Below are positions 1,372-28,973 of a DNA stretch of 30,173 nt, one piece after another (the first letter of the stretch is position 1; the number at the start of each line of letters is the position of its first letter). The translations under genes and the position numbers were made by a program. The notes under the pieces were generated by a model. That model did no database searches. It saw nothing but the letters and a program-made list of their open reading frames with translations, and was not told the origin of the DNA. Source of the DNA: Acidobacteriota bacterium (GTDB taxonomy: Bacteria > Acidobacteriota > Vicinamibacteria > Vicinamibacterales > CAVVIG01); contig JBEQUD010000285.1 in the NCBI GenBank assembly GCA_040349235.1, positions 1-30,173 on the forward strand. The letters run 5' to 3'.

Positions 1372-1386
1372 AGAGTGACCGCGCCG

Positions 1387-4300
1387 TTAGGCCGTGGCAG
1401 GGACCGTCGTGGTCGCCGTGATCTTGCGTGTCTTCACCAGCTGCGCCATGTAGGTGTAGACGACCGGTGTCAGGTAGAGCGTGATTAACTGGGAGACGAC
1501 GAGCCCGCCGACCACGGCCAGACCGAGCGGCCGCCGGGCTTCGCCGCCAGCGCCGTAGCCGAGGGCAATCGGCAGGGCGCCGAAGAGCGCCGCCGCCGTC
1601 GTCATCATGATAGGCCGGAACCGGATGACGCAGCCCTCGTAGATGGCTTCGCTCGGCGTCTTGTCGTGCTCGCGCTCCTGGTCGAGGGCGAAGTCGATCT
1701 GCATGATGGCGTTCTTCTTCACGATGCCGATGAGCATGACCAGGCCGACGAACGAGTAGATGTTCAGCTCGTTGCCGAAGACGTGCAGGGTGATGAGCGC
1801 GCCGAGCCCGGCCGACGGCAGGCCCGAGAGAATCGTCAGCGGATGGATGTAGCTCTCATACAGCATGCCGAGCACGATGTAGACCACGCCGATGGCCACG
1901 AACAGCAGCAGGCTCAGGTTGTTCAGCGACTGTTGGAACACCTTGGCCGAGCCCTGGAAGCTGGTGGTGATGGTGGGCGGCAGCACCTGTTTGGCCACGG
2001 CGTTGACGTGGTCCACGGCCGCCCCGAGCGACACGCCCGGGCGCAGGCTGAAGGACACGGACACGGCCGGCAGCTGCCCGACGTGGTTGACGCTCTGGGG
2101 GCCGACCGTTTCCTTGAAGCGCACCACGGATTCGAGCGGTACCAGGGCGCCGGACGGCGTCTTGAACCCGAGGCGCGTGAGCGAGTCGGCCTGTTCCTGG
2201 TACTTGGGGTCGAGTTCGAGCAGCACCTTGTACTGGCTGCGCGTGCCGTAGATGGTGGACGACCACCGCGGGCCGAGGCCCGTGCTCAGCGTGTTGGCGA
2301 TGATGTTCGCGTCCAGGCCCACGGCGGCGGCCTTGTCGCGGTCGATGACGAGATCGACGCGCGGGCTCTTGGCCTCGAGATTCGTCGAGACTTCCTGCAC
2401 CTCGGGGAGCGCCGAGACCGCCTGCTCGAGGATGGGCGCCCACTTCGTCAGCTCGTCGTAGTCGAGGCTCTCGATCATCAGGTTGTAGTTGCTGTTGCCC
2501 TGGAAGCCGCCGATCTGGAGGGACTGGGGGATGTTGACGAACGCGCGGAAGCCGGGATAGCGGCCGAGCGGCCCGCGCAGCTGCTGGGCGATCTGCTGCG
2601 CGGAGACGGGGCGTTCGCTCCGCGGCGTCAGCTGGATGTTCATCCGGCCGGTGTTCGACCCACCGAAGCGCGGCGCACCCGTATTGACCATCATCGCTTC
2701 GATGTACGGGTTCTTGTTGACCGCGGTCGCGACCCGCTCCATGTAGTTGACCATCTCGTAGAACGACGTCCCTTGGGCGGCGACGAGATTGACGTTGAGC
2801 GTGTCGTTGTCGGTATCGGGCACGAACCCCTTCGGCACGACGCCGAACATGTGCACCGTGGCCCAGATGACCGCGACGAACAGCACCATCATCGCCAGGC
2901 GATAGCGGAGCACCCAGCGGAGGCTCCACGCGTAGCCGCGCCGCAGGGCGTCGAAGCCGCGGTCCACCATGCCGGCGAAACCCGTGCTGGTGTGCACGAC
3001 ATGGAGGAACCGGCTGCAGAGCATCGGCGTGAGCGTAATCGAGACGACGCCCGAGATGAGGATGGCGGCGGTGATGGTGACGGCGAACTCGCGGAAGAGG
3101 CGCCCCAGGATGCCGGACATGAACAGAATGGGGATGAACACCGCGGCGAGCGATGTCGTCATCGTCAGGATGGTGAAGCCGATTTCCTTCGAGCCCCGGA
3201 GCGACGCCGTCAGGGCGTCCTCGCCCATCTCCATGTGCCGGACGATGTTCTCCAGCATCACGATGGCGTCGTCCACCACGAAGCCGACCGACAGGATGAG
3301 CGCCATCATGGACAGATTGTCCAGGCTGTAGTTCATCAGCTGCATGACGGCAAACGTGCCGAGGATGGAGAAGGGCAGGGCGAGCGCGGGGATGAGTGTC
3401 GCCGACCCATTGTGGAGGAACAGGTAGATGACCCCCACCACGAGCACCAGCGTGATGAGCATCGTGAACTGGATGTCGCCGAATGCCTGCCGAATCGTCT
3501 TCGACCGGTCCTGCCGGACGCTCATGTGGACCGACGGCGGCAGCTGCGCCTCGAGGCCCGGGATGACGGCGCGGACGCGGTCCGTCACGTCGATCACATT
3601 GGTGCCGGGCTGCTTCTGCACCTGCAGCGTGATGACGCGCTCGGTGTCCGCCTTGGTGTACAGCCAGGCGCGCTGCGTCGTGACCTCGACGCTGTCGAGC
3701 ACGTTGGCGACCTGATCGAGGCGCACCGGCCGGCCGTCGCGATACGCGAGCACGATGGGCCGGAACATCTGCGCGCTGCGCAGCAGGCCGTCCGGGCTCG
3801 TCAGCATGCCGTTGGCGTTGATCGTGAACGTGTTGCCCGAGCCGAAGAGCTGGCCGGTCGGCTGGTTGACGTTCCAGTTCTGGAGCGCCCGGTCCACTTC
3901 GTTCAGGCCGATGCCCTGCGCCTTCAGCTTGTTCGGGTCGAGCTGCACGCGGACGGCGTACTTCTGCGCGCCCTGGACGGTGACCTGCGACACCCCGTCC
4001 ACCATCGAGATGCGCGGCGCGAGGATGTTCTCCGCGTAGTCGTCCACGGCTGACATCTCGAGCGTCTTCGACACGAGGTTCAGCGACAGAATGGGCTGGT
4101 CCGCCGGGTTGGCCTTGCGGAACGACGGCGGCGCCGTCAGGGTGGAGGGCAGCAGCGGCGACGCCGCCGCGATGGCGGTCTGCACATCGACGACGGCGCT
4201 ATCGACGTTACGATCGAGGTCGAACGTCATCGTGATGACGGTGCTGGCCGCACCGCTCGACGACGTCATCTCGTCCACGCCGGCAATGGTGGTGAACTGG

Positions 4301-4506
4301 CGTTCGAGCGGGCTGGCGACCGTGGAGGCCATCGTCACCGGATCGCCGCCGGGCATGGCGGCGATCACGAACACAGAGGGGTAATCGACGGTCGGCAGGT
4401 CCGAGACCGGCAGCGCGCGGTACGCGACGACGCCGAACATCGCGATTGCCGCCATCAGCAGGCTGGTAGCGACGGGGCGTCGAATGAAGACTTCAGAAAA
4501 ATTCAC
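1387..4506 (-). CDS. RND efflux permease (HAE1, MdtB/MdtC-like), 1039 aa
   Basis: RRPVATSLLM N-terminus, TM4 VDDAIV proton-relay motif, GIVKKNAI and RFRPIMMTT motifs, typical length. Confidence 0.96.
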   Translation of the reverse strand: MNFSEVFIRRPVATSLLMAAIAMFGVVAYRALPVSDLPTVDYPSVFVIAAMPGGDPVTMASTVASPLERQFTTIAGVDEMTSSSGAASTVITMTFDLDRNVDSAVVDVQTAIAAASPLLPSTLTAPPSFRKANPADQPILSLNLVSKTLEMSAVDDYAENILAPRISMVDGVSQVTVQGAQKYAVRVQLDPNKLKAQGIGLNEVDRALQNWNVNQPTGQLFGSGNTFTINANGMLTSPDGLLRSAQMFRPIVLAYRDGRPVRLDQVANVLDSVEVTTQRAWLYTKADTERVITLQVQKQPGTNVIDVTDRVRAVIPGLEAQLPPSVHMSVRQDRSKTIRQAFGDIQFTMLITLVLVVGVIYLFLHNGSATLIPALALPFSILGTFAVMQLMNYSLDNLSMMALILSVGFVVDDAIVMLENIVRHMEMGEDALTASLRGSKEIGFTILTMTTSLAAVFIPILFMSGILGRLFREFAVTITAAILISGVVSITLTPMLCSRFLHVVHTSTGFAGMVDRGFDALRRGYAWSLRWVLRYRLAMMVLFVAVIWATVHMFGVVPKGFVPDTDNDTLNVNLVAAQGTSFYEMVNYMERVATAVNKNPYIEAMMVNTGAPRFGGSNTGRMNIQLTPRSERPVSAQQIAQQLRGPLGRYPGFRAFVNIPQSLQIGGFQGNSNYNLMIESLDYDELTKWAPILEQAVSALPEVQEVSTNLEAKSPRVDLVIDRDKAAAVGLDANIIANTLSTGLGPRWSSTIYGTRSQYKVLLELDPKYQEQADSLTRLGFKTPSGALVPLESVVRFKETVGPQSVNHVGQLPAVSVSFSLRPGVSLGAAVDHVNAVAKQVLPPTITTSFQGSAKVFQQSLNNLSLLLFVAIGVVYIVLGMLYESYIHPLTILSGLPSAGLGALITLHVFGNELNIYSFVGLVMLIGIVKKNAIMQIDFALDQEREHDKTPSEAIYEGCVIRFRPIMMTTAAALFGALPIALGYGAGGEARRPLGLAVVGGLVVSQLITLYLTPVVYTYMAQLVKTRKITATTTVPATA

Positions 4507-4560
4507 GCTGGCCTGCCCTCGTAGGGACAGCGCCCGGCCGAAGCCAGACGCCGGCGCTCG

Positions 4561-6021
4561 CTACTGGCCGCGCTGGCCTTGGGCGCCGCCCTGGCCCTGC
4601 CCCTGGCCCCCGCGGCCGCCACGCCCCCCGCGGCCGCCGCCCTGGACGTTGCCATTCGGATCGCTCAGCTGCACGCGCGTGCCGTCCTCGAGGCGCAGCT
4701 GCCCCTCCGTGACGACGAGCTCTCCCGGCTTGACGCCCTTCTCGATCACGATGTCGTCCCCGACCCGCTGGCCGACGGTCACGGGGCGCTGTTCGACCGT
4801 CATCGCGGGCGGGCCCGCTGCGTCGGCCCCACCCCTCGCATCCCCGGCTGGCGGCGCGCCCGCCGGCGGCGCACTCTGCGCTTGCCCGCGGCCCTGTCCG
4901 CGGCCGCCGCCCTGGTTGACCACGAAGATGAACTGGCCCTCCTGCCCGGTTTGGACCGCCTGCTGCGGGACGATGGTCGCCTGCGGCAGCGTCGTCAGCC
5001 GGAGGCTGACGCGCGCGAATTGGCCGGGCCACAGGCGGTGGTCGGTGTTCGGGAACGTCGCCTTCAGACGGATGGTGTCCGTCGTCTGATCGACGAGGTT
5101 GTCGATGAAGGTGAGCTCGCCCTCGGCGGGCTGCGCGTCGGCGTCCTGGGGTGTCGCGACCACGGACAGCTTGTCGCGACCACTGCTGTGTGCCTTGATC
5201 GTCGGCAGGTGGGTCGCTGGCACGGCAAAGGTGACGAAGACCGGCTGGATCTGGGCGATCGTCATAATCTGCGACGTGTTCGCGGTGACAAGATTGCCCG
5301 CCTTCACGGTGACGTCGCCCATCCGCCCGTCGATGGGCGACCGGAGCACGCAGTAGCTGAGCTGTACCTTCGCGGTGTCCACCGCGGCCTGCTGGGCGGT
5401 GAGCTGCGCGCGTGCGCTTTCCACAGAGGCCTTGTCGGCTTTCACGGTCGCGGCCGTGGCGTCGGCCTGCGAGCGCGCCTGCTGGCCGATATCCTTCGAG
5501 ACGATGCCCCGGGCGACCAGTTGCGTCTGACGCTCGGCCGACAGCTGCTGGTACTCCGCGCTCGCCGCGTCGCGAGCCAGTGCGGCTTCGGCTTGGGCGA
5601 GGAGCGCCTGGTCCCGGACGTAGTTCGCGTTGGCTTGCTCGAGGGCGGCCTGGAAGGGGCGTGCGTCGAGGCGGAAGAGCAGATCGCCCTTCTTCACCAT
5701 GTCCCCCTCGTGGATCGCCACCTGGTCCAGGATGCCGGTGACCTGGGACCGGACCGCGATGGTCGTATAGGCCTCGACGTTGCCGACGGCGCTGATGTCC
5801 ACCGGGACGTCCTTCTGGGTGACCCGGGCCGTCACGACCGGCTGCGTCCCGCCCCGGGCGCCCCGCCCCCCCCGACGGCCCCCACCCCCGCCACCTGGTG
5901 CCCCGTCAGCGCCCGCGCCGCCCCCGCACCCGGCGGCAAGAATGGCGACAGACAGCGCGGCCATCCCGGCGCACACACGACGAACCTGTCCAGCAGTTAG
6001 AATTTTGCGCACACGGCTCAT
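4561..6021 (-). CDS. RND membrane fusion protein (MdtA-like), predicted lipoprotein
   Basis: Start taken at ATG 6021 (MSRVRK); lipobox LAAGC; lipoyl-like VRSQVTG...GDMVKKGDLLF; SPIDG and LWPGQF motifs; upstream of two permeases. Confidence 0.92.
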   Translation of the reverse strand: MSRVRKILTAGQVRRVCAGMAALSVAILAAGCGGGAGADGAPGGGGGGRRGGRGARGGTQPVVTARVTQKDVPVDISAVGNVEAYTTIAVRSQVTGILDQVAIHEGDMVKKGDLLFRLDARPFQAALEQANANYVRDQALLAQAEAALARDAASAEYQQLSAERQTQLVARGIVSKDIGQQARSQADATAATVKADKASVESARAQLTAQQAAVDTAKVQLSYCVLRSPIDGRMGDVTVKAGNLVTANTSQIMTIAQIQPVFVTFAVPATHLPTIKAHSSGRDKLSVVATPQDADAQPAEGELTFIDNLVDQTTDTIRLKATFPNTDHRLWPGQFARVSLRLTTLPQATIVPQQAVQTGQEGQFIFVVNQGGGRGQGRGQAQSAPPAGAPPAGDARGGADAAGPPAMTVEQRPVTVGQRVGDDIVIEKGVKPGELVVTEGQLRLEDGTRVQLSDPNGNVQGGGRGGRGGRGGQGQGQGGAQGQRGQ

Positions 6022-6148
6022 TACGAATAGGCTCCACGAATCCAGGGATCTTGGGCTGGGATACTGTACAAGATACGGGTTGTCGGCCCGTACCATTTAC
6101 CCGGCTGCCGGGGAGACAGCAGAAACCACAGGCACTTACGCTTTATCT

Positions 6149-7045: not shown

Positions 7046-7468
7046 CTACTGGGCGCGCAGCAGCAGCACCGGAATTCTGACGAGATGGCGGACGCGGTCC
7101 GCTGTCGCGCCGTGCAGCAGATCCAGCAGGAAGCGGTGGCCGTGTGTGGACATGGCGATGAGGTCGGCGTGCTGGGCCTCGGCGGCCTTGACGAGTTCCG
7201 TGGCGGGGTCGCCCATCGCGAGGCGTGTTTCGACGGAGAACCCCTGGCCGACCAGCTCCACCCGCAAGCGTTCCAGGTAGGCCCGGTCGTCCTTCATCTC
7301 TTCGGATTCCCGGAGCTTCAGCTCGTTGAAATGGCGCGCGGCCCATCCGTCCGCGACGTGCACGAGGAGCAGCGTCGCGCCGGTCAGTCGGGCCAGCTGC
7401 GCCACGTGGAGCAGGATGGTCTGGTCCGCCACCGAGTTCTCCACCGCGACCAGGATGCGCTGATACAT
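7046..7468 (-). CDS. Universal stress protein (UspA family), 140 aa
   Basis: MYQRILVAVE, LLLVHV, GDPATELVKAAE...ADLIAMSTHG, IPVLLLR; follows mntH. Confidence 0.92.
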   Translation of the reverse strand: MYQRILVAVENSVADQTILLHVAQLARLTGATLLLVHVADGWAARHFNELKLRESEEMKDDRAYLERLRVELVGQGFSVETRLAMGDPATELVKAAEAQHADLIAMSTHGHRFLLDLLHGATADRVRHLVRIPVLLLRAQ

Positions 7469-7505
7469 AAGGGAACGTGAAACTCGGCCAGAGGTACTCG
7501 ACGAC

Positions 7506-8876
7506 CTACGTGCCCGCCACGGTCTGATACAGCAGCCACACGTTGAGCACCGCGATGATAACCGCGATCGCCCAGGCGAGGGCTTGCAGCCAGCGCGGCG
7601 TGACGAAGGCGCCCATCTTGGCCGGGTCGGACGTGAACGCCACGAGCGGAAACACGGCGAATGGCAGCTGCAGGCTGAGGATGACCTGGCTGAGGATGAT
7701 GAGCGGGCCCGTGCCGCGGTCGCCGTAGATTGCAATCACGATAATCGCGGGCACGATCGCCAGCAGGCGCGTGATGAGCCGCCGCAGCCACGGCCGCAGG
7801 CGCAGGTTGATGAACCCCTCCATCACGATCTGTCCGGCCAGGGTCCCCGTGAGCGTGGCGTTCTGGCCCGAACAGAGCAGCGCGACGGCAAACAGGACGC
7901 TGGCCGCCGTCGTGCCGAGCAGCGGCGACAGCAGCTGGTACGCGTCGCCGATTTCGGCGACGTCCTGGTGGCCCGTGCCGTGGAAGGTCGCGGCGGCCAT
8001 GATGAGGATGGCGGCGTTGATGAAGAGCGCGAACATCAGCGCGAAGGTCGAATCGATGGAGGCGAAGCGAATCGCTTCGCGCCGGCTCTCGAGCGAATCC
8101 GTGTACTTCCGCGTCTGCACGATGGACGAGTGCAGATACAGGTTGTGCGGCATGACCGTGGCGCCCAGGATGCCGATCGCGATGTACAGCATGCTGCCGT
8201 CGCGGAGGATATCCGGGTGCGGGACGAACCCCGCGGCCACCGCACCGACGGCCGGGTGCGCCAGCCAGAGTTCGACCGCAAACGAGCCGGCAATGGCCAG
8301 AATCAGCCCGACGACCAACGCCTCGACGTAGCGGAAGCCGCGGTGCTGGAGGAACAGCACGACGAGGACGTCCAGCGACGTGATCACGACACCCCAGATG
8401 AGCGGCAAGTGAAACAGCAGGTTGAGCGCGATGGCGGAGCCGATGACCTCGGCCAGGTCGCAGGCCGCGATGGCGATTTCGCAGAGCACCCAGAGGAAAA
8501 TAGTCGTCGGCTTCGAGTAGCTGTCGCGGCACGCCTGGGCCAGGTCCCGCCCGCTCGCGATCCCGAGCCGTAGCGCGAGCGCTTGAAGGACGATGGCCAT
8601 GACGTTCGAGATGAGGATGACGCTCAGCAGACGGTAGCCGTATTGGGCGCCCCCCTGCAGGTCGGTGGCCCAGTTGCCCGGATCCATGTAGCCGACGGCG
8701 ACCAGATAGCCCGGCCCCGCAAAGGCGAGCATCTTCCGCCAGAAGCCGGCCCCATGCGGAATGGCGACAGACCCGTGCACCTCGGGCAGACTGACGGCCG
8801 GGCTGGGGGTGCGCCAACCTTTACCAGTCGCACTTTTTATTTCCGGCTCAGCCGTATGAATATTTTGAATACTCAA
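7506..8876 (-). CDS. mntH: Nramp-family divalent metal (Mn2+/H+) transporter
   Basis: [10 protein letters not shown] and [10 protein letters not shown] signatures, about 11 TM segments. Start uncertain: GTG 8906 or TTG 8876 (a TACAAT box lies at 8888-8893). Confidence 0.93.
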
Positions 8877-8934
8877 AGTCTCGTGTAATTGTACCGCCTT
8901 GGCCACACGGAAGCGATACTTTCCTCAGGCGGGG

Positions 8935-8976
8935 AGTTGGTTCCCATTGTGGCCCATTGTGGGTAGTTGGTTCCCA
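8935..8976. repeat. Direct repeats AGTTGGTTCCCA x2 (30 bp apart) with a nested tandem CCCATTGTGG x2
   Basis: AGTTGGTTCCCA at 8935-8946 and 8965-8976; CCCATTGTGG at 8943-8952 and 8953-8962. Confidence 0.85.
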
Positions 8977-9039
8977 GAGCAGCAGGGCAACCAGAGAAAT
9001 AAAGCGAAGAACTTCTAGAACTCTTGGTTCTTTCCACGC

Positions 9040-9055
9040 AGGCACAGCACTTGCC
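9040..9055 (+). promoter_or_regulatory. Candidate sigma54 (-24/-12) promoter
   Basis: aGGCACagcacTTGCc matches TGGCAC-N5-TTGC with exact GG-N10-GC spacing; implied +1 near 9066, just before ATG 9067. Confidence 0.7.
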
Positions 9056-9066
9056 GTCAGGCGAGC

Positions 9067-9318
9067 ATGCCCGACCCCTTCGCCCGGTTCGTATCGGCCC
9101 GCAGTGTGTTCGTCGAAGATGCCGCCGCGCTGCTCGGCGTGTCGCGACGCACGATTTACTACCGGATTCGGGACGGGAAGCTCGCGACGATTCGTACCCG
9201 GGGCGGATCGCAGCGTGTGCTCGTCGAGTCGATCGGCGCGCTGTTGAGGCAGGAACGGCGGGCGAGGCAGGTGCGGGGGAGGACCGACGGCGTCAGAGCC
9301 CTAACCGATGGCGCTTGA
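9067..9318 (+). CDS. Small excisionase/BldC-like (MerR-type, HTH_17) DNA-binding protein, 83 aa
   Basis: VEDAAALLGVSRRTIYYRIRDGKLATIR pattern; 30/45 identical to the N-terminus of the subtilase at 14255-16324. Confidence 0.85.
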   Translation: MPDPFARFVSARSVFVEDAAALLGVSRRTIYYRIRDGKLATIRTRGGSQRVLVESIGALLRQERRARQVRGRTDGVRALTDGA

Positions 9319-12019
9319 GATACAGGCCCTTGCGTGAGATGCCCAGCGCCCGTGCCGCGGCGTCCACCCGGCCGTGGTGTTCTCGAAGGGCGACCTTGAT
9401 CATCTCGCGCTCGACCTGCGCGAGCGTGGTGTTGAGCTTGTTCGTCAGGCCAACCGCGATCTCGCGCCCGCCCGCGGGCGGTGTGGATGGGGTGCTGACC
9501 TCACGCGCCCGTCCGATGTCCGGAGACAGCAGACTCGTCGCGAGGACCGAGTGCGACTCGGCGATCGCGACGATCCGTCGGATCTCATTCTGGAGCTGCC
9601 GGACGTTGCCGGGCCATTCGTAGAGGACAAGCCGCTCCATCGCCTCCTCCGAGATGCGGACGTGCGTCTTCCTGAATTCCTCGGAGGCTCGCATCAGGAA
9701 GTTGCTCACGAGCGTCGGGATTTCGTCCCGCCGCTCGCGCAAGGGCCGCAGGGAGAGCCGGACGATGTTGAGCCGATAGAAAAGGTCTTCGCGGAAGCGT
9801 CCCTCTTTGACGAGGGCCTCGAGCTTCGAGTTGGTCGCCGCGACAATCCGCACGTCCACGACGAACGGCGCAGACTCGCCAAGCGGGCAGATCTCGCCGG
9901 ACTCCAGGAAGCGGAGCAGCTTGGGCTGCAACTCCAGGCTCAGTTCCCCGACTTCGTCGAGGAACAGCGTGCCATCCCGAGCGCTACGGATTACGCCAGG
10001 ATTGTCCCGATCCGCACCTGTGAAGGCCCCGCGGCGGTGACCGAACAACTGGCTCTCGAGCATCTCCCGTGGGATAGCCGCGCAGTTGAAGGGGACGAAG
10101 GGATGCTTGGCGCGACTCGAGTGTGTGTGGATGGCGCGCGCGACGACCTCCTTGCCCGTTCCGCTCTCGCCGGTGATGAGCACGCCGATGTTCGCGTGGG
10201 CGATCTTCTTCGCAAAGGTGATGACCTCGCGCATGTGACCGACCGTTACCGCGCCATCGCCGTCCGCCGGCAACTCGTCGATCGGCCAGAGCGTCGCGCG
10301 CTCCTCCCGCTCGGCCCGCGCGCATTCGAGGTCCCGCAGTGTCGCGACGATGAGGCCGATGGCGTTGACGGTTGCAATGGACTCGAGATCGTCTTTGGGT
10401 GTGAGCACGAGACTGACGTCTCGCTCCCCAGCCTTGCCGATCGCGACCCGCCGTCCGCCGCGCCGGCACCGTCGCTCGGGCTCCCCCGTTTCCGCCAGCG
10501 TCTCGACAACGCCATCGGTGCCGCGTGCCTCCGCTGCCGCGTGCCACACACTGCCTGTCTTGCCGAGCAGGTCGATCAACTCGGTCGCGATGAGGATGGG
10601 CCGACCAACATGGAGCGTGAGGGATGCCACGCTGTGCAGAGCGCTTGAGGGCGATAGGAATTGCTCGTCCGAATCTATCTCTGCGTTTGGGGAATTGGAA
10701 CACGCTCTTTCCCAAGCGTTCGCAAGCTCGAGCGCTCCGGCGTGATGCTGAAGGTCGCCAAAGATTCTTGCCGAGCGCCGGCGGTGGCAATCACCGGCGC
10801 CCATTTGGCCGGCTCGAACTGTCGCGCAGGCGAGAACTCGTTCATAGTGCGCAGAGAAATCTGGTGGCTGTTGAGGAATGGATAGCATGAGGTCTCGAAG
10901 AATCGAGCCACACTCATCCAATCGGCCGGCCTCCTGCAGGAAGTCCGCCTTCGATAGCGAGGCGATATTGCCGAAGAACTCGTCTTTTGCGCGCGTCGCG
11001 AGGCCGATCACAAATTCGATCTGACGGAGAGCTCCATCAATGTCGCCTTGTCGAGCCAATAAGACCGCGCGGGTCATCTGGGCGTGCCGGTATACGAACC
11101 TAGCCTGATCACCGCTCTCGCGCGCCTCCGACTCAATTTCATCAAGAACCCTAGCGCAGTTAGCGATGTGATCTTGTGCAAGATGAATACGAGCCAGAGT
11201 GTCAAGGCACCCTACCCAGGTATCCGATCCCCTCCTCGTTGTTCTTGCGCGCGTCAAGAAATCGTAGGCCTCGTCAAACCTTCCGGCAAGGTAGGCTAAG
11301 TGGCCGAGATTGCCAAGGGCACTCTCTCGAATGCTGGAAGCCCCGGCGTCCTCGGCGATGTCAAGCGACGTGCGCGCGTGCGTATTGGCTGCGACGAAGT
11401 TGGAGCACATTGTCTCGACCGCGCACGCCACATTCTCCACTAACGCCTCTAGCCAACGGTTTCCTGAGGAGGCCAGCCCGCGCCTTCCCATTTCCAGGTG
11501 GCGACGTGCGTTTCTCAGCAAACCCCGCTTGGCCTCTGTCTCCGAGACGTGGATATGAAGAGCGGCGACAATTCCAGAATTGCCGGTGTTCATAACGCGT
11601 GAGCGAAGTTCTGCCAGCATCGAGGCGATCGAATCCGGGCCAGAACGGTCGGAAAGGACGAGCAGGAGTCTCAACTGGGCCCAGCAAGCACGCTCTTGAT
11701 CATTGCCCTCAAGCGCAAGCGTCACCGCTCGCTGGAGTTGCGCGGTTGCAATTGCTGAATGGCCGTGCTCAATATTCACTCGGGCCAGCACGAGTTCACA
11801 GGAACTGCGCTCGGAGGGACTTAGGCCCTTCCCACGCAGCAGCGATTCCGCAAGCGCTGAACTCTTCTCGTATTGGCCTAGTCGTTCGAGTAGTTCTGCC
11901 CGTAGAACATCCGTCGATCGGCGGACGACGCCGATTGAGGCTGTATCTCGAAGAATTGCCAGCGCTTCTCTGAAGCGTCCCGCGTCGCGTAAGGCCTTGG
12001 CCTCATCCATGTGCACCAT
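9293..12019 (-). CDS. Sigma54-dependent activator (bEBP): TPR-like N-terminus + AAA+ + Fis HTH, no receiver domain
   Basis: Walker A GESGTGKE, FGHRRGAFTGA, Walker B LFLDEVGE, REDLFYRL, WPGNVRQLQN, C-terminal AAARALGISRKGLY; helical Ala/Leu repeats in the N-terminal ~470 aa. Start uncertain (TTG 12106, ATG 12019 or ATG 12010). Confidence 0.93.
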   Translation of the reverse strand: MVHMDEAKALRDAGRFREALAILRDTASIGVVRRSTDVLRAELLERLGQYEKSSALAESLLRGKGLSPSERSSCELVLARVNIEHGHSAIATAQLQRAVTLALEGNDQERACWAQLRLLLVLSDRSGPDSIASMLAELRSRVMNTGNSGIVAALHIHVSETEAKRGLLRNARRHLEMGRRGLASSGNRWLEALVENVACAVETMCSNFVAANTHARTSLDIAEDAGASSIRESALGNLGHLAYLAGRFDEAYDFLTRARTTRRGSDTWVGCLDTLARIHLAQDHIANCARVLDEIESEARESGDQARFVYRHAQMTRAVLLARQGDIDGALRQIEFVIGLATRAKDEFFGNIASLSKADFLQEAGRLDECGSILRDLMLSIPQQPPDFSAHYERVLACATVRAGQMGAGDCHRRRSARIFGDLQHHAGALELANAWERACSNSPNAEIDSDEQFLSPSSALHSVASLTLHVGRPILIATELIDLLGKTGSVWHAAAEARGTDGVVETLAETGEPERRCRRGGRRVAIGKAGERDVSLVLTPKDDLESIATVNAIGLIVATLRDLECARAEREERATLWPIDELPADGDGAVTVGHMREVITFAKKIAHANIGVLITGESGTGKEVVARAIHTHSSRAKHPFVPFNCAAIPREMLESQLFGHRRGAFTGADRDNPGVIRSARDGTLFLDEVGELSLELQPKLLRFLESGEICPLGESAPFVVDVRIVAATNSKLEALVKEGRFREDLFYRLNIVRLSLRPLRERRDEIPTLVSNFLMRASEEFRKTHVRISEEAMERLVLYEWPGNVRQLQNEIRRIVAIAESHSVLATSLLSPDIGRAREVSTPSTPPAGGREIAVGLTNKLNTTLAQVEREMIKVALREHHGRVDAAARALGISRKGLYLKRHRLGL

Positions 12020-12109
12020 TGCGTCGCTCGTTTCATGTGGGGTGAGAGCCAAACTCTTCCATATTCCGTAGCTGTTTTGGAAGTGATAATGGATGAGCCT
12101 CGACAAGAA

Positions 12110-12129
12110 GCGTGCAAATTGTGGGTGAC
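12110..12129. promoter_or_regulatory. Candidate operator GCGTGCAAATT-N3-GGTG (copy 1)
   Basis: 15/18 identical to 16530-16547; resembles the NtrC box TGCAC-N7-GTGCA. Confidence 0.45.
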
Positions 12130-12209
12130 CGAGAAGGCTGTGCCTGTCCCCCTCTCGGATCGCAACGCCCTCCGACGCCAGGGCAGGCCATGGCGTGGCC
12201 AGGCCGCGT

Positions 12210-14198
12210 CTAGCCCTCTTGGCGACGAACCACTACTGACCTGGCGGCGAACGGCACGGTGTCTAGTGCGCCGGCCACGATCTGTGTCTGGCAGATGTCA
12301 CCAAAACTATCCCACAGGGAATCATGGCCGCGCGCTATTGCTTCGAGCGCCCGTCGGTCGCCGTCGCTAAACCCATTCTCAGAGGCTGTGTAGAGGGTAA
12401 TCACTCCGAGGAATCGTTTGCTGCTGGTGAGCGGGGTGCTCAGGCACGCTTGGAGGCCGCGGTCTAATGCAATGTCTCCAAGGTCGAGGGCTGCCGCCGA
12501 ATTAAGGATGGTCTGGTTGTTCACGGCTACCCAACCACTCAGGCGCTGTCCCAGAGGTATTCTCAAGGTATCCAGGTCTGCCGCGCCGGCGCCGAACGCC
12601 GCCGCAACTTCTAGCTCGTCGATAGCTCGGTTGTTGATGAAAAGCACACCCAGTGAAAAATCAATCGACGCGCTCGTCAGCGCGCGCAAACGTTCTGTTG
12701 CGTCGAAATGAGACTGAAGCGCCAAAGAGTCTGGCATCGTGCCGTCGCTGCGCTTGCTCTCCTCCGGCAACCGGTGCGGAGCTTGAAAACTCGCCTGGGT
12801 GGCCGCGACGATCTCTCGAAGTGCGTGTCTAGGAGGCCCAAGCGATGTCTCTTTGGGCGCAATGTCCCTGTAGACCCTGGCGAAAGTATCCACGACTAGG
12901 GGATCGTACATTGATCCCCGTCTCTCCTGCAGGATGGCCAGTGCCGCCTCGTCGGAGAGGCGAGGACGATATGGTCTGTCTGATGTCAATGCATCGAAGC
13001 AATCGACAACCGAGAGAATCCTGGCGCCAATGGGGATGTTGGTTCCGCAAAGTCCCTCAGGATATCCGGTGCCATTCCAGCTTTCGTGGTGACACCTAAC
13101 GATGGGAACGACTGGATACGGAAAGTCGATCGCTCCGAGGATATCGGCGCCGATTGTTACGTGCAACTTCATTTTTTCAAACTCGACCGGCGTGAGCTTG
13201 CCCGGCTTGTTCAGGATGTACTCGGGTACAGCCAGCTTGCCCATGTCATGAAGCAAGGCGGCCGCCTCGATCGCCTTGATGAGCTTTTCATCGCTTACGC
13301 CAAGCTCCTTTGCGAGCCCGACCGCGTAAGCCTGCACCCGTCTAATGTGCCCGTGGGTGATCTGATCTTTGGCGTCTATCGCCATTGCCAGTGTTTCGAT
13401 CGTCGAGAGATACAGTGTGTTCAATTGCCCAACGTGTCTGTAGGCGTCCTCCACTCGTTCCATTGATGTCTTGAACGTGAAATAGAGCACAAGTAAGAGA
13501 GGCACCACGATCCCAACAAACCGCAAGTCGATGGTTCTGTTGTAGCCCACAAGGAGTACGGCGACTGACGCGCCGCAAAAGTAGTTGAGGGAAAGCCACA
13601 CGAACCCGTCACGCCAGACGTCAAGGACGTTTGCTCGTCGGTGGATGGCAATGCGCACAGCGATTAGTCCACTGTTGAGGCCGAAGTATGTAACTGCGAA
13701 CAGAACTAGAGACGGTAGGATCTGGTTCAGTGAGGCGGGCTGTTCGGACAGCGGCGCAATCCCGGAGGCCTTAAAGAATAGTTGCGCGGAGCACCAGGCT
13801 GACAATGCGGGCGCCGCTATATTGAACAGCACTCGCTCCACTTCCGGACGCCGTTTGGCTAGCCAGAAGGAGATAACCAGGCCGTCAAGGGCGACAGTGA
13901 GCGTTCCGGCTGATGGCCCGTATAGAAGGACGGCCGCGAAGACGAAGGCTTCGGAGATTGAGATGGTTACGTTCGTTCGAGGCAGTTCGACGCCGGCTGA
14001 GCCGCTGATCAGCGTCAGAAGACCAAGAAGCAACCATTGGGCGCCAATAGGTACGCGGTAAAGATGAACAAGGGATTCCCCGATCGCGAGGAATCCCATG
14101 AGGATCACGAGGAATACGAATGTCCTGCCGAGGCGAGACAAGGGTGAGCCAGTGGATGCCGTGGGCCAAGCAGTTATCGGTTGTTTAGTCCCAAACAA
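12210..14198 (-). CDS. HD-GYP cyclic dinucleotide phosphodiesterase with ~7-TM N-terminal sensor and C-terminal GAF
   Basis: DAKDQITHGH, LLHDMGK, HHESWNGTGYP, VDCFDALTSDRPYR all intact; hydrophobic N-terminal ~240 aa; GAF-like GLSGW-type segment (QRLSGWVAVN) and STPL...GVITLY...FSDGD. Start uncertain (TTG 14198). Confidence 0.92.
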   Translation of the reverse strand: MFGTKQPITAWPTASTGSPLSRLGRTFVFLVILMGFLAIGESLVHLYRVPIGAQWLLLGLLTLISGSAGVELPRTNVTISISEAFVFAAVLLYGPSAGTLTVALDGLVISFWLAKRRPEVERVLFNIAAPALSAWCSAQLFFKASGIAPLSEQPASLNQILPSLVLFAVTYFGLNSGLIAVRIAIHRRANVLDVWRDGFVWLSLNYFCGASVAVLLVGYNRTIDLRFVGIVVPLLLVLYFTFKTSMERVEDAYRHVGQLNTLYLSTIETLAMAIDAKDQITHGHIRRVQAYAVGLAKELGVSDEKLIKAIEAAALLHDMGKLAVPEYILNKPGKLTPVEFEKMKLHVTIGADILGAIDFPYPVVPIVRCHHESWNGTGYPEGLCGTNIPIGARILSVVDCFDALTSDRPYRPRLSDEAALAILQERRGSMYDPLVVDTFARVYRDIAPKETSLGPPRHALREIVAATQASFQAPHRLPEESKRSDGTMPDSLALQSHFDATERLRALTSASIDFSLGVLFINNRAIDELEVAAAFGAGAADLDTLRIPLGQRLSGWVAVNNQTILNSAAALDLGDIALDRGLQACLSTPLTSSKRFLGVITLYTASENGFSDGDRRALEAIARGHDSLWDSFGDICQTQIVAGALDTVPFAARSVVVRRQEG

Positions 14199-14211
14199 TT
14201 ATTGGCTTCAT
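14185..14211 (-). CDS. Putative micro-ORF MKPIIVWD
   Basis: ATG AAG CCA ATA ATT GTT TGG GAC TAA preceded by GAGAG; IVW-D resembles the adjacent SIVWS(G/D) repeats. Translation unproven. Confidence 0.3.
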   Translation of the reverse strand: MKPIIVWD

Positions 14212-14254
14212 GCGCTCTCGTCAACCCTCGGGTTTCGGGCGGCCACTCAGGAGC

Positions 14255-16324
14255 CTAGTCGAGTGTAGCGCCTGACCAAACAATGGATTGTCCGGTTGCG
14301 TCTGACCAAACGATGGACTGGCCTGTCGAGCCTGACCAGACAATGGATTGATTTGTCGCGTCGGACCAAACGATGGAGTCTGACCAAACAATTGATCCAG
14401 ACCACACGATAGACTTTGCATCGAGCATCTGGCTCGACCACTGGATGGGTTCATTTGAGCCCGACCACACGATTGAGTTTGCGCCGGGCGCTGCCCCAGA
14501 CCACACAATTGATCCCGACCAGACGATCGATCCCGACCAGACGATCGATCCCGACCAGACGATTGAATGTGGCGAGAGCCGTGAGCCCGACCAGACGATC
14601 GAGTCAGACCACACGATTGAATCAGGTCTCACTCTCGCCCCGGACCAGACGATCGAGACCGTACGGACGAGACTTCCGGACCAGACTATTGAATTCCCCA
14701 GTAAGAGCCGTTGGCCTCCTGGAGTGTTTCTTGCCAAGATTCCGCTGCCCACCGCCCTTTCTCCAGCGATCTGCGTCGCTGGCAACACTCCGTTAAGGCC
14801 GACTTCGATGAAGTCTGCAGCGGCGAGCACGTTCAGACTTCCAGAGCCACCATCAAGAATCCCGACCGCTGGCGAGAACGAGCTGGTGAGCTGCAGGATC
14901 GTCTTCGTTTCCCCCGGCTGTAGTCCGCCTCTTTCGTCCAGTAGTAACGCGGCGGCGCCGCTGACCACCGCCGCGGCCATGCTCGTGCCCGAGAGCTGCA
15001 TGTAGGCGTTGGCCCCGGTGCCGCTGACGTGCCGCTGCGGATAGTTCGTGCTGAGGTACGAGTTCGCGGATTCGGCCCCGTGGATGTGGGCGCCGGGCGC
15101 CGCGAGGTCCGGCTTCAGGACGCGATCGTAGGCGGTTGGGCCGCGCGAGCTCCAGGGGGCCACGGTGTCGTCCGAGCGCTGGGGTGTGTCGTGCGTGTCG
15201 AGGGCGCCGACCGTCAGGGCGTAGGGACTGTTGCCAGGGGACGTGATGCCGCCGATGACGTTCTTGCCGTCCGCGGTCTGGCCGAAATTGCCGGCCGCCG
15301 CGACGACGAGGATTCCGGCGCGCGTCGCCCGTTCGACGGCCTCGCACAGCGGGTCGTCGCGGAACGGCTGCAGGACGGGGGCGCCGAGCGACAGATTGAT
15401 GATGCGGATGTTGAACTGGCCGCGGTGGCGGATGGCCCAGTCGATGGCCTCGACGACGTCGCTTGCATTGCCGGAGCCGTCGGCGCCGAGGGCGCGCAGG
15501 TTGATCAGCCTGGCGCCGTACGCGATGCCGCGGTAGCTGGCCGCGGAGTTGCGCGAGAGACCGGCGATGATCGAGGCAACGTGGGTGCCGTGCCCGTAGC
15601 GGTCCTGGCCGTTGCCGCCGGTGAAGTCCACGGATGCCACGACGCGGTTGCGGAGCGCCGCGTGCGTCGTATCAATCCCGGAATCGATGACGGCGACGCC
15701 GACGCCGTTGCCCGAGAGCGGGTCGAGTGCGCCGGCGCCAGCCCATACCTGATCGGCGCCAATCGACTCCGCGGTGACGTCCGCGAGGGACTGCACGCGG
15801 CTGTCGCTCGAAAGGTGATCGATGGCGTCGTCCTGTTGCAGGGCGTCGAGCTGGCCGGAATTGACGCGGACGACCGCGCCGCTCTCCAACTTTCGCTTGA
15901 TGACAAGGTTGTACTTCCGGGCGATGCCGGTCACTTCCTGGTCGCTGCCGTGGACGATGACGTTGATGTCCTGTCCGCCTCGGTTCAGGCGGTCTGCCAG
16001 GTCCGAACTGAGTCGTGCGCGGTGCTGGGCAGCGGCGGGTCTGATGCAGAGCGCGAGTAATAGGACGGCCGTGCCGGCTGTGCGGGCTTGTTGCCGCCAC
16101 GCCGAGACTGGGGCTGGGGCGGGATCCCGCAATTCCACGATCGACTCGAGCAGCACGCGCTTGGATGCACCAAACGTTCGCACCGTCCGGAGGCGGCCCT
16201 CGCTGATCCTGCTGTACACCGTTCGGCGCGACACGCCGAGCAGCGCCGCCGCTTGGTCGATGGAAACGCTGCGACCGACGAGCACGTCGTGAGTCGGACG
16301 AGAGAAGTCCTGAGACAGGGGCAT
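14255..16324 (-). CDS. S8 subtilase with N-terminal HTH_17 domain, internal signal peptide, prodomain and C-terminal SIVWS repeat tail, 689 aa
   Basis: Catalytic triad VAVIDSGID, HGTHVA, GTSMAAA; oxyanion AAGN; GGAGG RBS before ATG 16324. Confidence 0.94.
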   Translation of the reverse strand: MPLSQDFSRPTHDVLVGRSVSIDQAAALLGVSRRTVYSRISEGRLRTVRTFGASKRVLLESIVELRDPAPAPVSAWRQQARTAGTAVLLLALCIRPAAAQHRARLSSDLADRLNRGGQDINVIVHGSDQEVTGIARKYNLVIKRKLESGAVVRVNSGQLDALQQDDAIDHLSSDSRVQSLADVTAESIGADQVWAGAGALDPLSGNGVGVAVIDSGIDTTHAALRNRVVASVDFTGGNGQDRYGHGTHVASIIAGLSRNSAASYRGIAYGARLINLRALGADGSGNASDVVEAIDWAIRHRGQFNIRIINLSLGAPVLQPFRDDPLCEAVERATRAGILVVAAAGNFGQTADGKNVIGGITSPGNSPYALTVGALDTHDTPQRSDDTVAPWSSRGPTAYDRVLKPDLAAPGAHIHGAESANSYLSTNYPQRHVSGTGANAYMQLSGTSMAAAVVSGAAALLLDERGGLQPGETKTILQLTSSFSPAVGILDGGSGSLNVLAAADFIEVGLNGVLPATQIAGERAVGSGILARNTPGGQRLLLGNSIVWSGSLVRTVSIVWSGARVRPDSIVWSDSIVWSGSRLSPHSIVWSGSIVWSGSIVWSGSIVWSGAAPGANSIVWSGSNEPIQWSSQMLDAKSIVWSGSIVWSDSIVWSDATNQSIVWSGSTGQSIVWSDATGQSIVWSGATLD
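14270..14692 (-). repeat. Intragenic repeat: 15 x SIVWS(G/D) plus one PIQWSS variant
   Basis: Counted from manual translation: 11 end in G and 4 in D; codons vary between copies; 18-nt tandem array at 14513-14566. Confidence 0.97.
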
Positions 16325-16353
16325 CGTGAAGTCCTCCGGTTTCCGTGTGTAAA

Positions 16354-16369
16354 CGCACGCCCGATACCA
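16354..16369 (-). promoter_or_regulatory. Candidate sigma54 promoter for the subtilase gene
   Basis: TGGTATcgggcGTGCG has GG-N10-GC spacing; implied +1 near 16343, about 19 nt before the ATG, with GGAGG in between. Weaker match than the 9040 site. Confidence 0.5.
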
Positions 16370-16405
16370 CACGGCGCACCCGGCAGGCGTTCGCTGTTTG
16401 TCTGC

Positions 16406-16420
16406 TGTAAGTCGCTTACA
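16406..16420. promoter_or_regulatory. Palindrome TGTAAG-N3-CTTACA
   Basis: Perfect 6-bp inverted repeat upstream of the subtilase promoter candidate. Confidence 0.45.
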
Positions 16421-16529
16421 TCCAGTTGTTTAGCTCTAGGGACTCAGCCGCGGCGCATCTCGAGAGACGGCACGATTCGGCCAAGAAACTGTCCAGTTGG
16501 CACGGTCTCTCGCGGTGGCTCGCTATTTT

Positions 16530-16549
16530 GCGTGCAAATTTCAGGTGCT
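16530..16549. promoter_or_regulatory. Candidate operator/enhancer GCGTGCAAATT-N3-GGTG (copy 2)
   Basis: TGCAaatttcaGGTGCt resembles the NtrC consensus; about 190 bp upstream of the implied +1. Confidence 0.45.
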
Positions 16550-16714
16550 CGGCTGGACGGTATGGGAATTTTGCCGGTCAAGAAACTAGCCACCAGGCCA
16601 GGAATCAGACAGACAGAAGAGGATAGAGGGCGTCACTATGCGCACCGGTACGCAACGCACGCCGGGGGGCGCGTCGCCGTGGCCCGAGGCCCCCTAACGT
16701 ACAATGCCGCGCAC

Positions 16715-17605
16715 ATGACCTTCACGGGTGTTCTTGCACCAATTCCGACACCGTTCAACGAGACGGGAGCGTGCGATGCCGACCGTCTCCGTCGCGCCCT
16801 GACACGGTGGATGGCGACGCCGCTGGCGGGCGTCGTCGTTCTCGGGACGAGCGGGGAAGCGCATCTGGTGGACGACGACGAGGCCGACCGGGTCGTCGGT
16901 GTGGCGCGGGAGTGCGTGCCGGCGGACCGCGCCTTCATCGTGGGGGCGGGTCGCGAATCGACCGCGTGCACGATTCGCGCGGTCGCTCGGGCGGCGCGCC
17001 TCGGTGCCGATGCCGTGCTCGTCCGCACGCCTGGGGCGTTCAGGAATCAGATGACAGACGAGGCGTTGACCGCGCACTACACGGCCGTGGCGGATGCGGC
17101 CACCGTGCCGGTGCTCTTGTACAACTTCCCCGCGCTCACGGGCGTGTGCCTCTCGGCCGGGGCGGTGGCACGGCTGGCGACGCACCCGAACATCGTCGGC
17201 ATCAAGGACTCGAGCGGCGACGTGGCGCAAATTGCGGCGTTTGCCGCCGCGGCGAGCGACTCCTTCACGGTGCTCTCGGGCTCGGGGTCCACGTTCGACG
17301 CCGCGGTGTCGTGCGGTGCAGGCGGGGGGATTCTCGCGCTGGCCTGTGTGCTGCCGGCGGCGTGCGTCGAGCTGTTTGGGCTGGCGAGGGCGGGGGAGGG
17401 CGAGGCCGCACGGATGCTCCAGGCGCGTCTGCTTTCCGTCGCGCGGCTCATTGGGGCGCAGTACGGTATCCCGGGCCTGAAAGCCGCAGCCTGTCTCGCT
17501 GGTTACGACGTTGGCGTGCCGCGGCTGCCGTTGGCGCCCGCTCCACCCGAGGCGGTCGGCGCGATCGCCGAGGCCCTTCGCGCGTTCCAGACATCCGCGG
17601 TGTGA
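16715..17605 (+). CDS. Dihydrodipicolinate synthase family aldolase (DapA/HOGA-like)
   Basis: PIPTPF, LGTSGE, LYNFP, NIVGIKDSSGD (Schiff-base Lys); start ATG 16715. Confidence 0.92.
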   Translation: MTFTGVLAPIPTPFNETGACDADRLRRALTRWMATPLAGVVVLGTSGEAHLVDDDEADRVVGVARECVPADRAFIVGAGRESTACTIRAVARAARLGADAVLVRTPGAFRNQMTDEALTAHYTAVADAATVPVLLYNFPALTGVCLSAGAVARLATHPNIVGIKDSSGDVAQIAAFAAAASDSFTVLSGSGSTFDAAVSCGAGGGILALACVLPAACVELFGLARAGEGEAARMLQARLLSVARLIGAQYGIPGLKAAACLAGYDVGVPRLPLAPAPPEAVGAIAEALRAFQTSAV

Positions 17606-23198: not shown

Positions 23199-23253
23199 GT
23201 TGTCTTCACTCCGACAGGACAGGACACTCGCCAACAGGCGGCCCAGGCTTTTG

Positions 23254-24948: not shown

Positions 24949-25733
24949 CGCCCCTTGAGCGACAGCAAGTACGCCAGCAGGTCCGCCGCTTCTTCGTCGG
25001 TCAGCTTGCCCTTGTAGGACGGCATCGGCGACACGGTGCGGATGGTGTACTCGCGGAGGTCCGCCTTGGTCAGCGAGACCAGGCGTTCCTGGTCGTCGAT
25101 CAACTGCACGGTGTAGGTGTCTTCGTTCAGCCGCCGGCCGTTGATGACGCGGCCGTCCCGCGTGACCGCGTGCACCGGGCGATTGATGGGCATCATCTGG
25201 CTGGACGGGTCCATCAGCGTGCGCATGATCGACCCGGCGCCGCGCGTCGCGCCGATGTCGCTCAGGTCCGGTGCGGCGCGGGGCCCCCGGGCGCCCACGC
25301 GGTGGCAGTGCCCGCAGTCGCCCTTGCCTTCGAAGACCTGCTGGCCGCGGACGGCATCGCCCGGCTTCACCGACGAGCGATCGAAGGCGTTGATGTTGCG
25401 GAGATACGCGATGACGCCCGCCAACTCCGACGCGTCGAACTTGAAGGCCGGCATGCCCTTGCCCGCGACCCCGTTCGTGATGACGCCGGCCAGGTCGCGG
25501 TCGGTCACCGCGGTGTGGAACTTGCCGGTCTTGAAGTCGATGCCGCCCACGCCGTCGCCGTTCGGCCCGTGGCACGTGGTGCACTGCGAGTCATATAGGC
25601 GTGCGCCGTAGGCGATGTCGGCGGGGGCATAGTCCTCGGGATGGCCGTTTCCGGGCGCTTGCGCGGCGAGGGATGTCGAGCCCAGGACGGCAAGGCCGAG
25701 AACCGCGAGAAGTCGAAGTGCGTGTCTGTGCAT
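24945..25733 (-). CDS. Periplasmic di-haem cytochrome c with Pirellula/Verrucomicrobium-type haem-binding domain
   Basis: Signal peptide; CTTCH and CGHCH; candidate axial Met in GMPAF and SPMPSY. Confidence 0.88.
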   Translation of the reverse strand: MHRHALRLLAVLGLAVLGSTSLAAQAPGNGHPEDYAPADIAYGARLYDSQCTTCHGPNGDGVGGIDFKTGKFHTAVTDRDLAGVITNGVAGKGMPAFKFDASELAGVIAYLRNINAFDRSSVKPGDAVRGQQVFEGKGDCGHCHRVGARGPRAAPDLSDIGATRGAGSIMRTLMDPSSQMMPINRPVHAVTRDGRVINGRRLNEDTYTVQLIDDQERLVSLTKADLREYTIRTVSPMPSYKGKLTDEEAADLLAYLLSLKGR

Positions 25734-25760
25734 GTCTACCCCCAATCGATGGCGTCGTCG

Positions 25761-27446: not shown

Positions 27447-27577
27447 GCGTCTCAGGCAGCCTCGTGCGCGTGGCGGAAGCAATTGCATCATCCCCATGCG
27501 CGTCACTATAGCGCCAACCGCTGCCGCCAGTGAGGACGTTGTGCCGAGTGGCGACAATCGACCGTTCCGCCGATCGG

Positions 27578-28798: not shown

Positions 28799-28861
28799 TC
28801 CCGCCTCCTGATAGATGCACGCGGGGCCGCTCGACTCGTCCCAACGCGTCCCGGCGCGCGC

Positions 28862-28878
28862 TGATTGTCGCTCAATCA
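28862..28878. promoter_or_regulatory. Palindrome TGATTG-N5-CAATCA in a divergent intergenic region
   Basis: Perfect 6-bp inverted repeat in an AT-richer patch. Confidence 0.45.
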
Positions 28879-28973
28879 ATGGGTTTGTCAACCGTGGGCG
28901 ATGGCGGCGCCACGCGCACGCGAATGCGCTGCCGGCGTCGATCTGCCCCCATGCGGAGAGGCGCCTTTGGTGT

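Follow-up and report, generated by a model that had tools for sequence, protein, structure and literature searches.

We analysed a 30,173-nucleotide (nt) stretch of DNA (hereafter the window; positions 1 to 30,173 of contig JBEQUD010000285.1, forward strand) that belongs to a 2.83-Mb, 69% complete assembly (GCA_040349235.1) of an acidobacterium of the order Vicinamibacterales. Members of this order are common soil and rhizosphere bacteria, and to our knowledge almost nothing is known about regulation in them. The window holds a cluster of four genes, which encode a subtilase with a repetitive C-terminal tail, a membrane HD-GYP protein, a sigma-54 activator (bacterial enhancer-binding protein, bEBP) and a small helix-turn-helix (HTH) protein, together with a conserved open reading frame (ORF) of only eight codons (henceforth referred to as the micro-ORF) between the subtilase and HD-GYP genes. 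Comparison of the cluster with its orthologues firmly supports a sigma-54-dependent module that is predicted to produce a secreted protease together with a cyclic-dinucleotide phosphodiesterase and a pair of Xis-like DNA-binding proteins. The coding features of the cluster are the following:

9067..9318, plus strand: small HTH_17 (Xis/MerR-like) gene of 83 residues, a paralogue of the protease-linked HTH
9293..12019, minus strand: bEBP gene from ATG 12019, with tetratricopeptide repeats (TPR), an alpha/beta domain, a linker helix, AAA+ and HTH_8
12210..14198, minus strand: membrane HD-GYP gene of 662 residues, with about 8 transmembrane helices (MASE9-like), HD-GYP and GAF (from Pfam)
14185..14211, minus strand: micro-ORF, MKPIIVWD-stop, conserved across the order and ending in the tail motif
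14255..16324, minus strand: subtilase gene with HTH_17, signal anchor, I9-like propeptide, S8 domain and tail in a single frame (from Pfam, AlphaFold2 (AF2) and orthologues)
14255..14692, minus strand: C-terminal tail of the subtilase, 15 SIVWS(G/D) hexapeptides (from repeat analysis)

The subtilase ORF spans positions 14255-16372 of the minus strand, and its real start is ATG 16324, behind a GGAGGA sequence, which gives a protein of 689 residues. The protein matches Peptidase_S8 (PF00082, E 2e-52); D214, H248 and S448 are invariant and N346 is nearly invariant (≥90%) across 38 subtilase orthologues. In the AF2 model the HTH, anchor helix, propeptide and catalytic domain are all modelled well, with a predicted local distance difference test (pLDDT) value of >90 for the core. 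The HD-GYP protein, for which TTG 14198 and TTG 14141 are candidate starts, matches HD_5 (PF13487, E 5e-41) and, weakly, MASE9; it contains the motifs LLHDMGK and HHESWNGTGYP (signature HHExxDGxGYP, with Asp replaced by Asn), and its closest solved relatives are V-cGAP3, PmGH and PA4781. The bEBP lies in a long ORF (9293-12106, minus strand) and probably starts at ATG 12019, since alignments with orthologues begin no earlier than residue 30 of that frame. It matches Sigma54_activat (PF00158, E 5e-66) and HTH_8 (PF02954, E 6e-12) and carries the Walker A motif GESGTGKE as well as GAFTGA. As described in a first-pass annotation made from the sequence alone, the cluster therefore consists of three co-oriented genes (subtilase, transmembrane HD-GYP-GAF and TPR-bEBP) and a convergent HTH gene, with a second HTH on the protease. 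The two HTHs score 31.4 and 36.2 bits against HTH_17 (PF12728, cut-off 27), and 32 and 31.4 bits against the excisionase-type model TIGR01764 (cut-off 28.8). Against the BldC family (NF033787, cut-off 77) the score is 21 bits. The earlier description of both as Xis/BldC-like thus holds for the Xis type, whereas the likeness to BldC is one of size and fold class only.

Synteny was compared in two ways, by whole-genome searches of 40 relatives and by a scan anchored on the highly conserved HTH, which yielded 80 loci, each from a different species. In the first comparison, orthologues of the subtilase, of the HD-GYP protein and of the TPR part of the activator were adjacent in most genomes of the window's own family, and side-by-side orthologues were also found in 8 or more further families; identity across these families and the window's own was 45-60%. 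In the second, 52 of the 80 loci had at least 7.5 kb beyond the anchor and, under strict thresholds, S8, HD-GYP and bEBP genes occurred together in at least 38 of these 52; looser thresholds added several more loci, and a few loci were reduced (HTH only, HTH and bEBP, or without HD-GYP). Occurrence of the genes together in other genomes was the condition on which the first-pass annotation had staked its proposal of a common system, and the proposal came through both comparisons. The gene order that is kept reads dapA, then HTH_17, S8, HD-GYP, TPR-bEBP and convergent HTH_17, then Nramp; in the window, dapA (about 16.7-17.6 kb) is the right neighbour of the four genes and an Nramp/Usp region (7046-8906) the left one. 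The convergent HTH_17 gene, which overlaps the 3' end of the bEBP gene by 26 nt, is found downstream of bEBP in 25 of the 80 anchored loci. In a survey of 200 sampled Acidobacteriota genomes (the window's own genome not counted), the HTH marker was present in 13 of 15 other genomes of the same order and in 0 of about 185 other Acidobacteriota, which firmly supports the cluster as order-specific, that is, confined to Vicinamibacterales in the sample searched. We searched the literature for the domain combination and motifs and found no relevant description of this architecture in the papers covered, in agreement with the earlier impression that the system was new. The domains themselves are all known; it is their combination in a sigma-54 operon with a cyclic di-GMP (c-di-GMP) enzyme that is apparently undescribed.

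Such conservation could in principle reflect inherited synteny only, with genes that are neighbours by descent between dapA and Nramp and have no common function, and the housekeeping flanks are indeed conserved too. However, the cluster is kept in at least 9 families at the level of identity given above, and a functional link is argued for by paralogous S8/HD-GYP pairs, HTH-S8 fusions and locus-specific cis elements (see below). A paralogous second S8/HD-GYP pair is present in several genomes, independently of the cluster and with its two genes abutting or overlapping. In 5 of 55 loci (the window, at 16024-16324, and L039, L049, L105 and L107 of four other species) the HTH is fused in frame to the signal anchor of S8, and in the other 50 it is a separate gene; contigs from other sequencing runs show no conflicting indels at the fusion, which is a Rosetta-stone type link between the HTH and S8. 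Taken together, we consider descent alone an extremely unlikely explanation for the cluster. The hydrophobic signal anchor of the subtilase ends AAA/Q, and cleavage of the fusion by signal peptidase would leave behind a membrane-tethered DNA-binding fragment.

The promoter sites and sequence boxes of the cluster are the following:

9040..9055, plus strand: sigma-54 -24/-12 site AGGCAC-N5-TTGCC before the convergent HTH gene (17 of 25 loci)
16354..16369, minus strand: sigma-54 site TGGTAT-N5-GTGCG before the HTH-S8-micro-ORF-HD-GYP-bEBP string (47 of 54 loci)
16405..16442, minus strand: equivalents of GCAATCACTTAG (~40 nt upstream) and CATCCTAGACCAACAA (~65 nt upstream), between candidate enhancer and promoter
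16479..16495, minus strand: dyad-like box TGGACAGTTTCTTGGCC (family GCCA-N6-TGGC), candidate enhancer, ~115 nt upstream of the promoter
16526..16538, minus strand: near-palindrome TTTGCACGCAAAA, some 170 nt before the promoter
16576..16592, minus strand: second copy of the dyad-like box, TGGCTAGTTTCTTGACC (from the anchored comparison)
12110..12127, minus strand: TTTGCACGC box present a second time, within the 190-nt gap that precedes the ATG of bEBP
14169..14175, minus strand: CCGATAA box, after the micro-ORF stop

Taken alone, both sigma-54 sites of the window are weak: the one at 9040 agrees with the consensus at 9 of 12 positions, and the one at 16354 at fewer. At the positions of both, TGGCAC-N5-xTGC(C/G) is seen in orthologous loci, with a site 75-106 nt before the core of the first HTH in 47 of 54 loci and 25-76 nt before the core of the convergent HTH in 17 of 25 loci, where chance would provide about 0.05 sites per 40-nt window. 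These counts bear out the first-pass annotation, which had placed inward-facing sigma-54 promoters at both ends of the cluster. The ATG of the convergent HTH gene lies 11 nt after the motif in the window and 11-14 nt after it (16 nt in one case) wherever the site was found, and the 5' leader of its mRNA would therefore be only a few nt long, making this transcript nearly leaderless. The sigma-54 gene rpoN is present in 19 of 20 relatives, and sigma-70 promoters and terminators were no more frequent than expected by chance. When 48 upstream regions were compared, anchored on the promoter, four further conserved boxes emerged upstream of it. The near-palindromic box, the family form of which is TTTGCACGCAAA, lies about 170-190 nt upstream of the promoter; in its strict form it occurs at 0.026 per kb and is nearly confined to the locus, with about 26 of its 33 occurrences in the 80 loci at this position, and occasional extra copies lie before the bEBP gene (12110-12127 in the window) or before the convergent HTH gene. 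We propose that the bEBP activates both promoters, so that promoter one would drive the string HTH_17, S8, micro-ORF, HD-GYP and bEBP and promoter two the second HTH_17. Because the bEBP is encoded in the string that it would drive, the circuit would be autoregulatory.

In this bEBP, TPR repeats take the place of the receiver domain. AF2 modelled the first 591 residues with confidence (pLDDT 90, predicted template modelling score 0.88) as a superhelix of ~24 helices (residues 1-441), followed by a small alpha/beta domain and a long helix that leads into the AAA+ domain. When the TPR region was compared by sequence with solved structures, no match was obtained, and the TPR-bEBP reached no NCBIfam equivalog, the best full-length-type models being far under their cut-offs. 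A Foldseek search with the TPR model matched APC5, domain III of MalT, LGN/Pins, APPBP2 with a degron and phage Rap with its pheromone. The TPR-type sensor postulated by the first-pass annotation is therefore backed by a large, confidently modelled superhelix with peptide-binding TPRs among its fold matches; the model resembles TPRs of the broad type whose groove accommodates an extended peptide, a match that is not diagnostic. The TPR region also diverges much faster than the AAA+ region (30-38% versus about 65% identity). Lacking a receiver, the activator would presumably be switched by a ligand or partner on its TPR superhelix. A GAFTGA-containing core under an N-terminal non-receiver sensor is likewise found in NorR, XylR/DmpR and FhlA, and the TPR part has a counterpart in MalT; the sensor here differs from those of NorR, XylR/DmpR and FhlA in being a ~440-residue, 24-helix superhelix with a small alpha/beta domain.

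The predicted membrane phosphodiesterase encoded by the HD-GYP gene would lower the level of c-di-GMP or a related dinucleotide. No periplasmic domain was seen in its sequence. The pairing of an exported protease with an inner-membrane c-di-GMP protein is reminiscent of LapD/LapG; however, in that system the protease (LapG) is of the cysteine type, and LapD is a receptor that has a degenerate GGDEF-EAL module and a periplasmic domain. Here, Pfam finds S8 and HD-GYP/GAF only, and the pair consists of an S8 serine protease and an apparently active HD-GYP protein that lacks a periplasmic domain.

The residues of the 15 tail units of the subtilase are identical, yet the units differ from each other at 56% of third codon positions. 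Rare A/T-ending codons occur in the tail, the G+C content of which at third codon positions (GC3) is 0.62. Spacers between units are mostly 0 or 6 residues long, so that the 6-residue period is maintained, an indication of a structural register. The tail is covered by no Pfam or NCBIfam model, and a stable solenoid was not supported by AF2 (pLDDT about 30), a result weakened by the shallow and repeat-confused alignment. Among protease orthologues the motif is present in 5-25 copies, and each tail has its own, internally homogeneous hexapeptide: the flavours include NSIVWG, DTIMWG (about 20 perfect copies), DSLVWT, NTLVWG, DRIVWG, IIVWGE, GIYWGN and IIVFGE, with the consensus polar - Ser/Thr - hydrophobic - hydrophobic - Trp - small, and of those S8 orthologues that were inspected visually, about half terminate precisely in Trp-small-acid-stop. 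The genome of the window encodes only two tail-bearing proteins, both of them S8; the second (contig C330, 1298-3136; NIIWGT in 11 copies) adjoins ruvB, ruvA, ruvC and a YebC-like gene, with no HD-GYP gene nearby. Up to a dozen S8 paralogues in relatives align through the tail, and a search with the tail alone retrieved only 9 S8 proteins, one of which is also an HTH_17 fusion. Because S8 paralogues unlinked to the cluster carry it, the tail belongs to an S8 subfamily in general rather than to the cluster in particular, and we regard it as a general, probably unfolded C-terminal extension of this subfamily.

The first-pass annotation had instead read the tail as the source of a peptide signal. 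In the form considered here, the tail would be cut after each Trp, and the hexapeptides, as diffusible signals, would be sensed by the membrane domain of the HD-GYP protein and/or imported to the TPR superhelix, closing a feedback loop. Each unit does resemble a subtilisin-type site (a large aromatic P1 followed by a small residue), and both the identity of the units in protein despite their third-position differences and the species-specific flavours are as would be expected of a signal, as is a tail without a predicted fold; nevertheless, the same tail is carried by the S8 protein beside ruvABC, with neither HD-GYP nor regulator, and by many other paralogues, and its 0- or 6-residue spacers point to a structural register. 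On the side of the receptors, the fold of the TPR region is like that of peptide-binding TPRs, including phage Rap with its pheromone, and its rapid divergence relative to AAA+ also counts in favour, but the HD-GYP protein has no periplasmic domain, no Opp-type importer is encoded in the window or the conserved cluster, and some clusters retain the HTH and bEBP genes without S8. A further point in favour is the conserved micro-ORF, from which a single copy of the tail motif would be made in the cytoplasm; tail flavour and micro-ORF, however, do not co-vary, save in one locus that has Trp-Thr in both. We therefore consider release and sensing of the tail units improbable. The broader proposition that the hexapeptide is a signal in a peptide circuit, made once in the cytoplasm from the micro-ORF and in 5-25 copies on the secreted subtilase and read by the TPR-gated activator and/or the HD-GYP protein and linking extracellular proteolysis to a second messenger, seems to us rather unlikely. 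A TPR-type receptor beside a tiny gene for a short hydrophobic peptide does recall the RRNPP and Rgg/SHP systems (Rap, NprR, PlcR, PrgX, AimR), which depend on an exported pro-peptide and its import. Here, by contrast, the output is a sigma-54 AAA+ ATPase instead of an HTH or phosphatase, the host is an acidobacterium, the micro-ORF of 8-9 codons has no export signal and no Opp importer is linked to it. Many identical short units, here fused to an enzyme, are also seen in multi-copy precursors (cyanobactin PatE, Kex2-processed fungal precursors and the BURP lyciumin precursors); the differences are that the cluster encodes no modifying enzymes and that the repeats also occur on unlinked paralogues.

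The micro-ORF lies 44 nt past the protease stop, and an ORF of 8-9 codons is present at the same place in 43-45 of 53 orthologous loci (about 85%). It starts with ATG in 41 of the 43 scored cases, and a Shine-Dalgarno-like sequence is present in 40 of 43. The peptide closes with (L/I)-I-(V/I)-W and then D, S, GE, GD, GN, GS or TE before the stop, which is the hydrophobic-Trp-small-acidic motif that is repeated in the protease tail; two main classes can be distinguished, xxIIVWD, to which the window's clade belongs, and xxLIIWGE, found in another clade. Second codon positions have ~0 entropy, whereas third positions vary by 1-2 bits (Leu as CTC, CTG, TTG or CTA, Gly as GGT, GGC or GGA, Glu as GAA or GAG), and it is because second positions are invariant while third positions vary that we conclude that selection acts on the peptide. 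The form of the micro-ORF found here is unique in the 2.83-Mb assembly and identical in a contig from another study's run. We rejected the idea that it is a decayed leftover repeat, since it has an ATG and a Shine-Dalgarno sequence, its length is fixed and its conservation is of the coding type. A CCGATA(A/G) box follows the stop by 1-8 nt in the window and 20 related loci, being invariant in the 21 aligned, and is missing from many LIIWGE-class loci. In most loci the start of the HD-GYP gene lies within or next to a stable, GC-rich hairpin (40 loci: mean z -1.08, with 40% below -1.5). With MAFFT and RNAalifold, the hairpins of the spacer could not be brought into register to give a consensus structure, and Rfam gave no match in the 8900-16800 span at E values up to 1.

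A short upstream ORF with a peptide under selection is characteristic of leader peptides, and we propose that the micro-ORF works in cis: its product would be a leader peptide that gates translation of the HD-GYP gene in a sequence-specific manner. The arrangement resembles translational attenuation (ermCL, cat-86, cmlA, msrDL, tnaC) in that an ORF of 8-9 codons with a Shine-Dalgarno sequence lies directly before a gene, in that its peptide is conserved and in that, in most loci, a hairpin lies at or over the downstream start. We put the chances of the combined reading, that of a leader acting in cis to gate HD-GYP translation together with a tail extension that is generic to the protease family, at about even. 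The peptide might alternatively act in trans, as a cytoplasmic ligand of the TPR superhelix (through a carboxylate clamp) or of GAF, and report translation of the operon. Selection on the peptide, not the RNA, and its conservation even in loci without the CCGATAA box and hairpin would agree with a trans role, as would the C-degron reader APPBP2 among the TPR fold matches and the Trp-small-acid-stop end of about half of the S8 orthologues inspected; however, the position of the micro-ORF right before the HD-GYP start and the hairpin in most loci fit a role in cis, and we know of no functional 8-residue bacterial peptide that is made without processing. A role in trans is accordingly doubtful in our view.

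A further alternative is nascent-chain arrest, in which the repeats would slow translation of the protease C-terminus until export pulls on the chain, as in SecM, MifM and VemP, and arrest in the micro-ORF would open the HD-GYP start. This would account for the motif common to tail and micro-ORF, and it would be in keeping with a secreted protein whose C-terminus bears the motif and is encoded immediately before a structured start region, and with the rare A/T-ending codons of the tail. Against this, 15-25 serial arrests would be costly, paralogous S8/HD-GYP pairs lack the micro-ORF, the tail motif resembles no citable arrest sequence known to us and the scheme is inferential throughout, so that we consider arrest very unlikely.

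The cluster also has an unusual base composition. GC3 is 0.60-0.65 over the tail, the micro-ORF, the HD-GYP gene and the TPR part of the bEBP gene (10600-14950 in the window; 39 related loci), whereas dapA, Nramp, the region for the S8 core and the AAA+-coding part of the bEBP gene itself reach 0.83-0.89. The breakpoints fall inside genes, across the order, and a paralogous HD-GYP gene (L040) has a GC3 of 0.87. Recent horizontal transfer of a low-GC cassette was ruled out, since the same low GC3 is found in 39 orthologous loci. One locus (L033) holds a decaying copy of the cluster, in which S8 is deleted and bEBP has in-frame stops; there, a 20-codon ORF ending in SIVWGL persists after the HTH gene, and the CCGATAA box still precedes HD-GYP. 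With regard to habitat, soil and rhizosphere sequencing runs of several studies hold DNA near-identical to the window, and the related loci come from soil and rhizosphere assemblies. Outside the conserved cluster, the window contains an RND efflux set (1-6096; two AcrB-family genes and an HlyD-type adaptor) and three tandem genes for pyrroloquinoline quinone-dependent dehydrogenases followed by a cytochrome c gene (21501-28891), a region in which sequence blocks repeat about 1.75-2.5 kb apart.

Several observations weigh against the proposed sigma-54 module with its cis-acting leader and generic tail. Firstly, the match of the micro-ORF peptide to the protease tail is unexplained by a pure leader reading, and we know of no leader peptide that copies a motif repeated in the secreted protein encoded upstream. 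Secondly, unlike in translational attenuation, no stable hairpin follows the micro-ORF in the window (z +0.35) or in its closest relative, L039 (z +0.85); a cis mechanism would here need the overlap of the micro-ORF with the candidate HD-GYP start TTG 14198. Thirdly, rpoN was not found in the window's 69%-complete assembly, and no sequencing run was shown to hold the locus as RNA, in a search that ran across run kinds and was not RNA-specific. Finally, part of the synteny is simply inherited, because the flanking dapA and Nramp genes are conserved too.

Overall, the module is found in most species of the order and has a fully legible control region, and it poses the puzzle of a tiny conserved gene that spells out the unit repeated in the tail of the protease next to it. 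Should the motif prove to be a signal, the cluster would represent a type of peptide-sensing circuit for which we know of no description in Gram-negative bacteria; should the micro-ORF encode a leader peptide, translation of a cyclic-dinucleotide enzyme would be under a new, sequence-specific switch.

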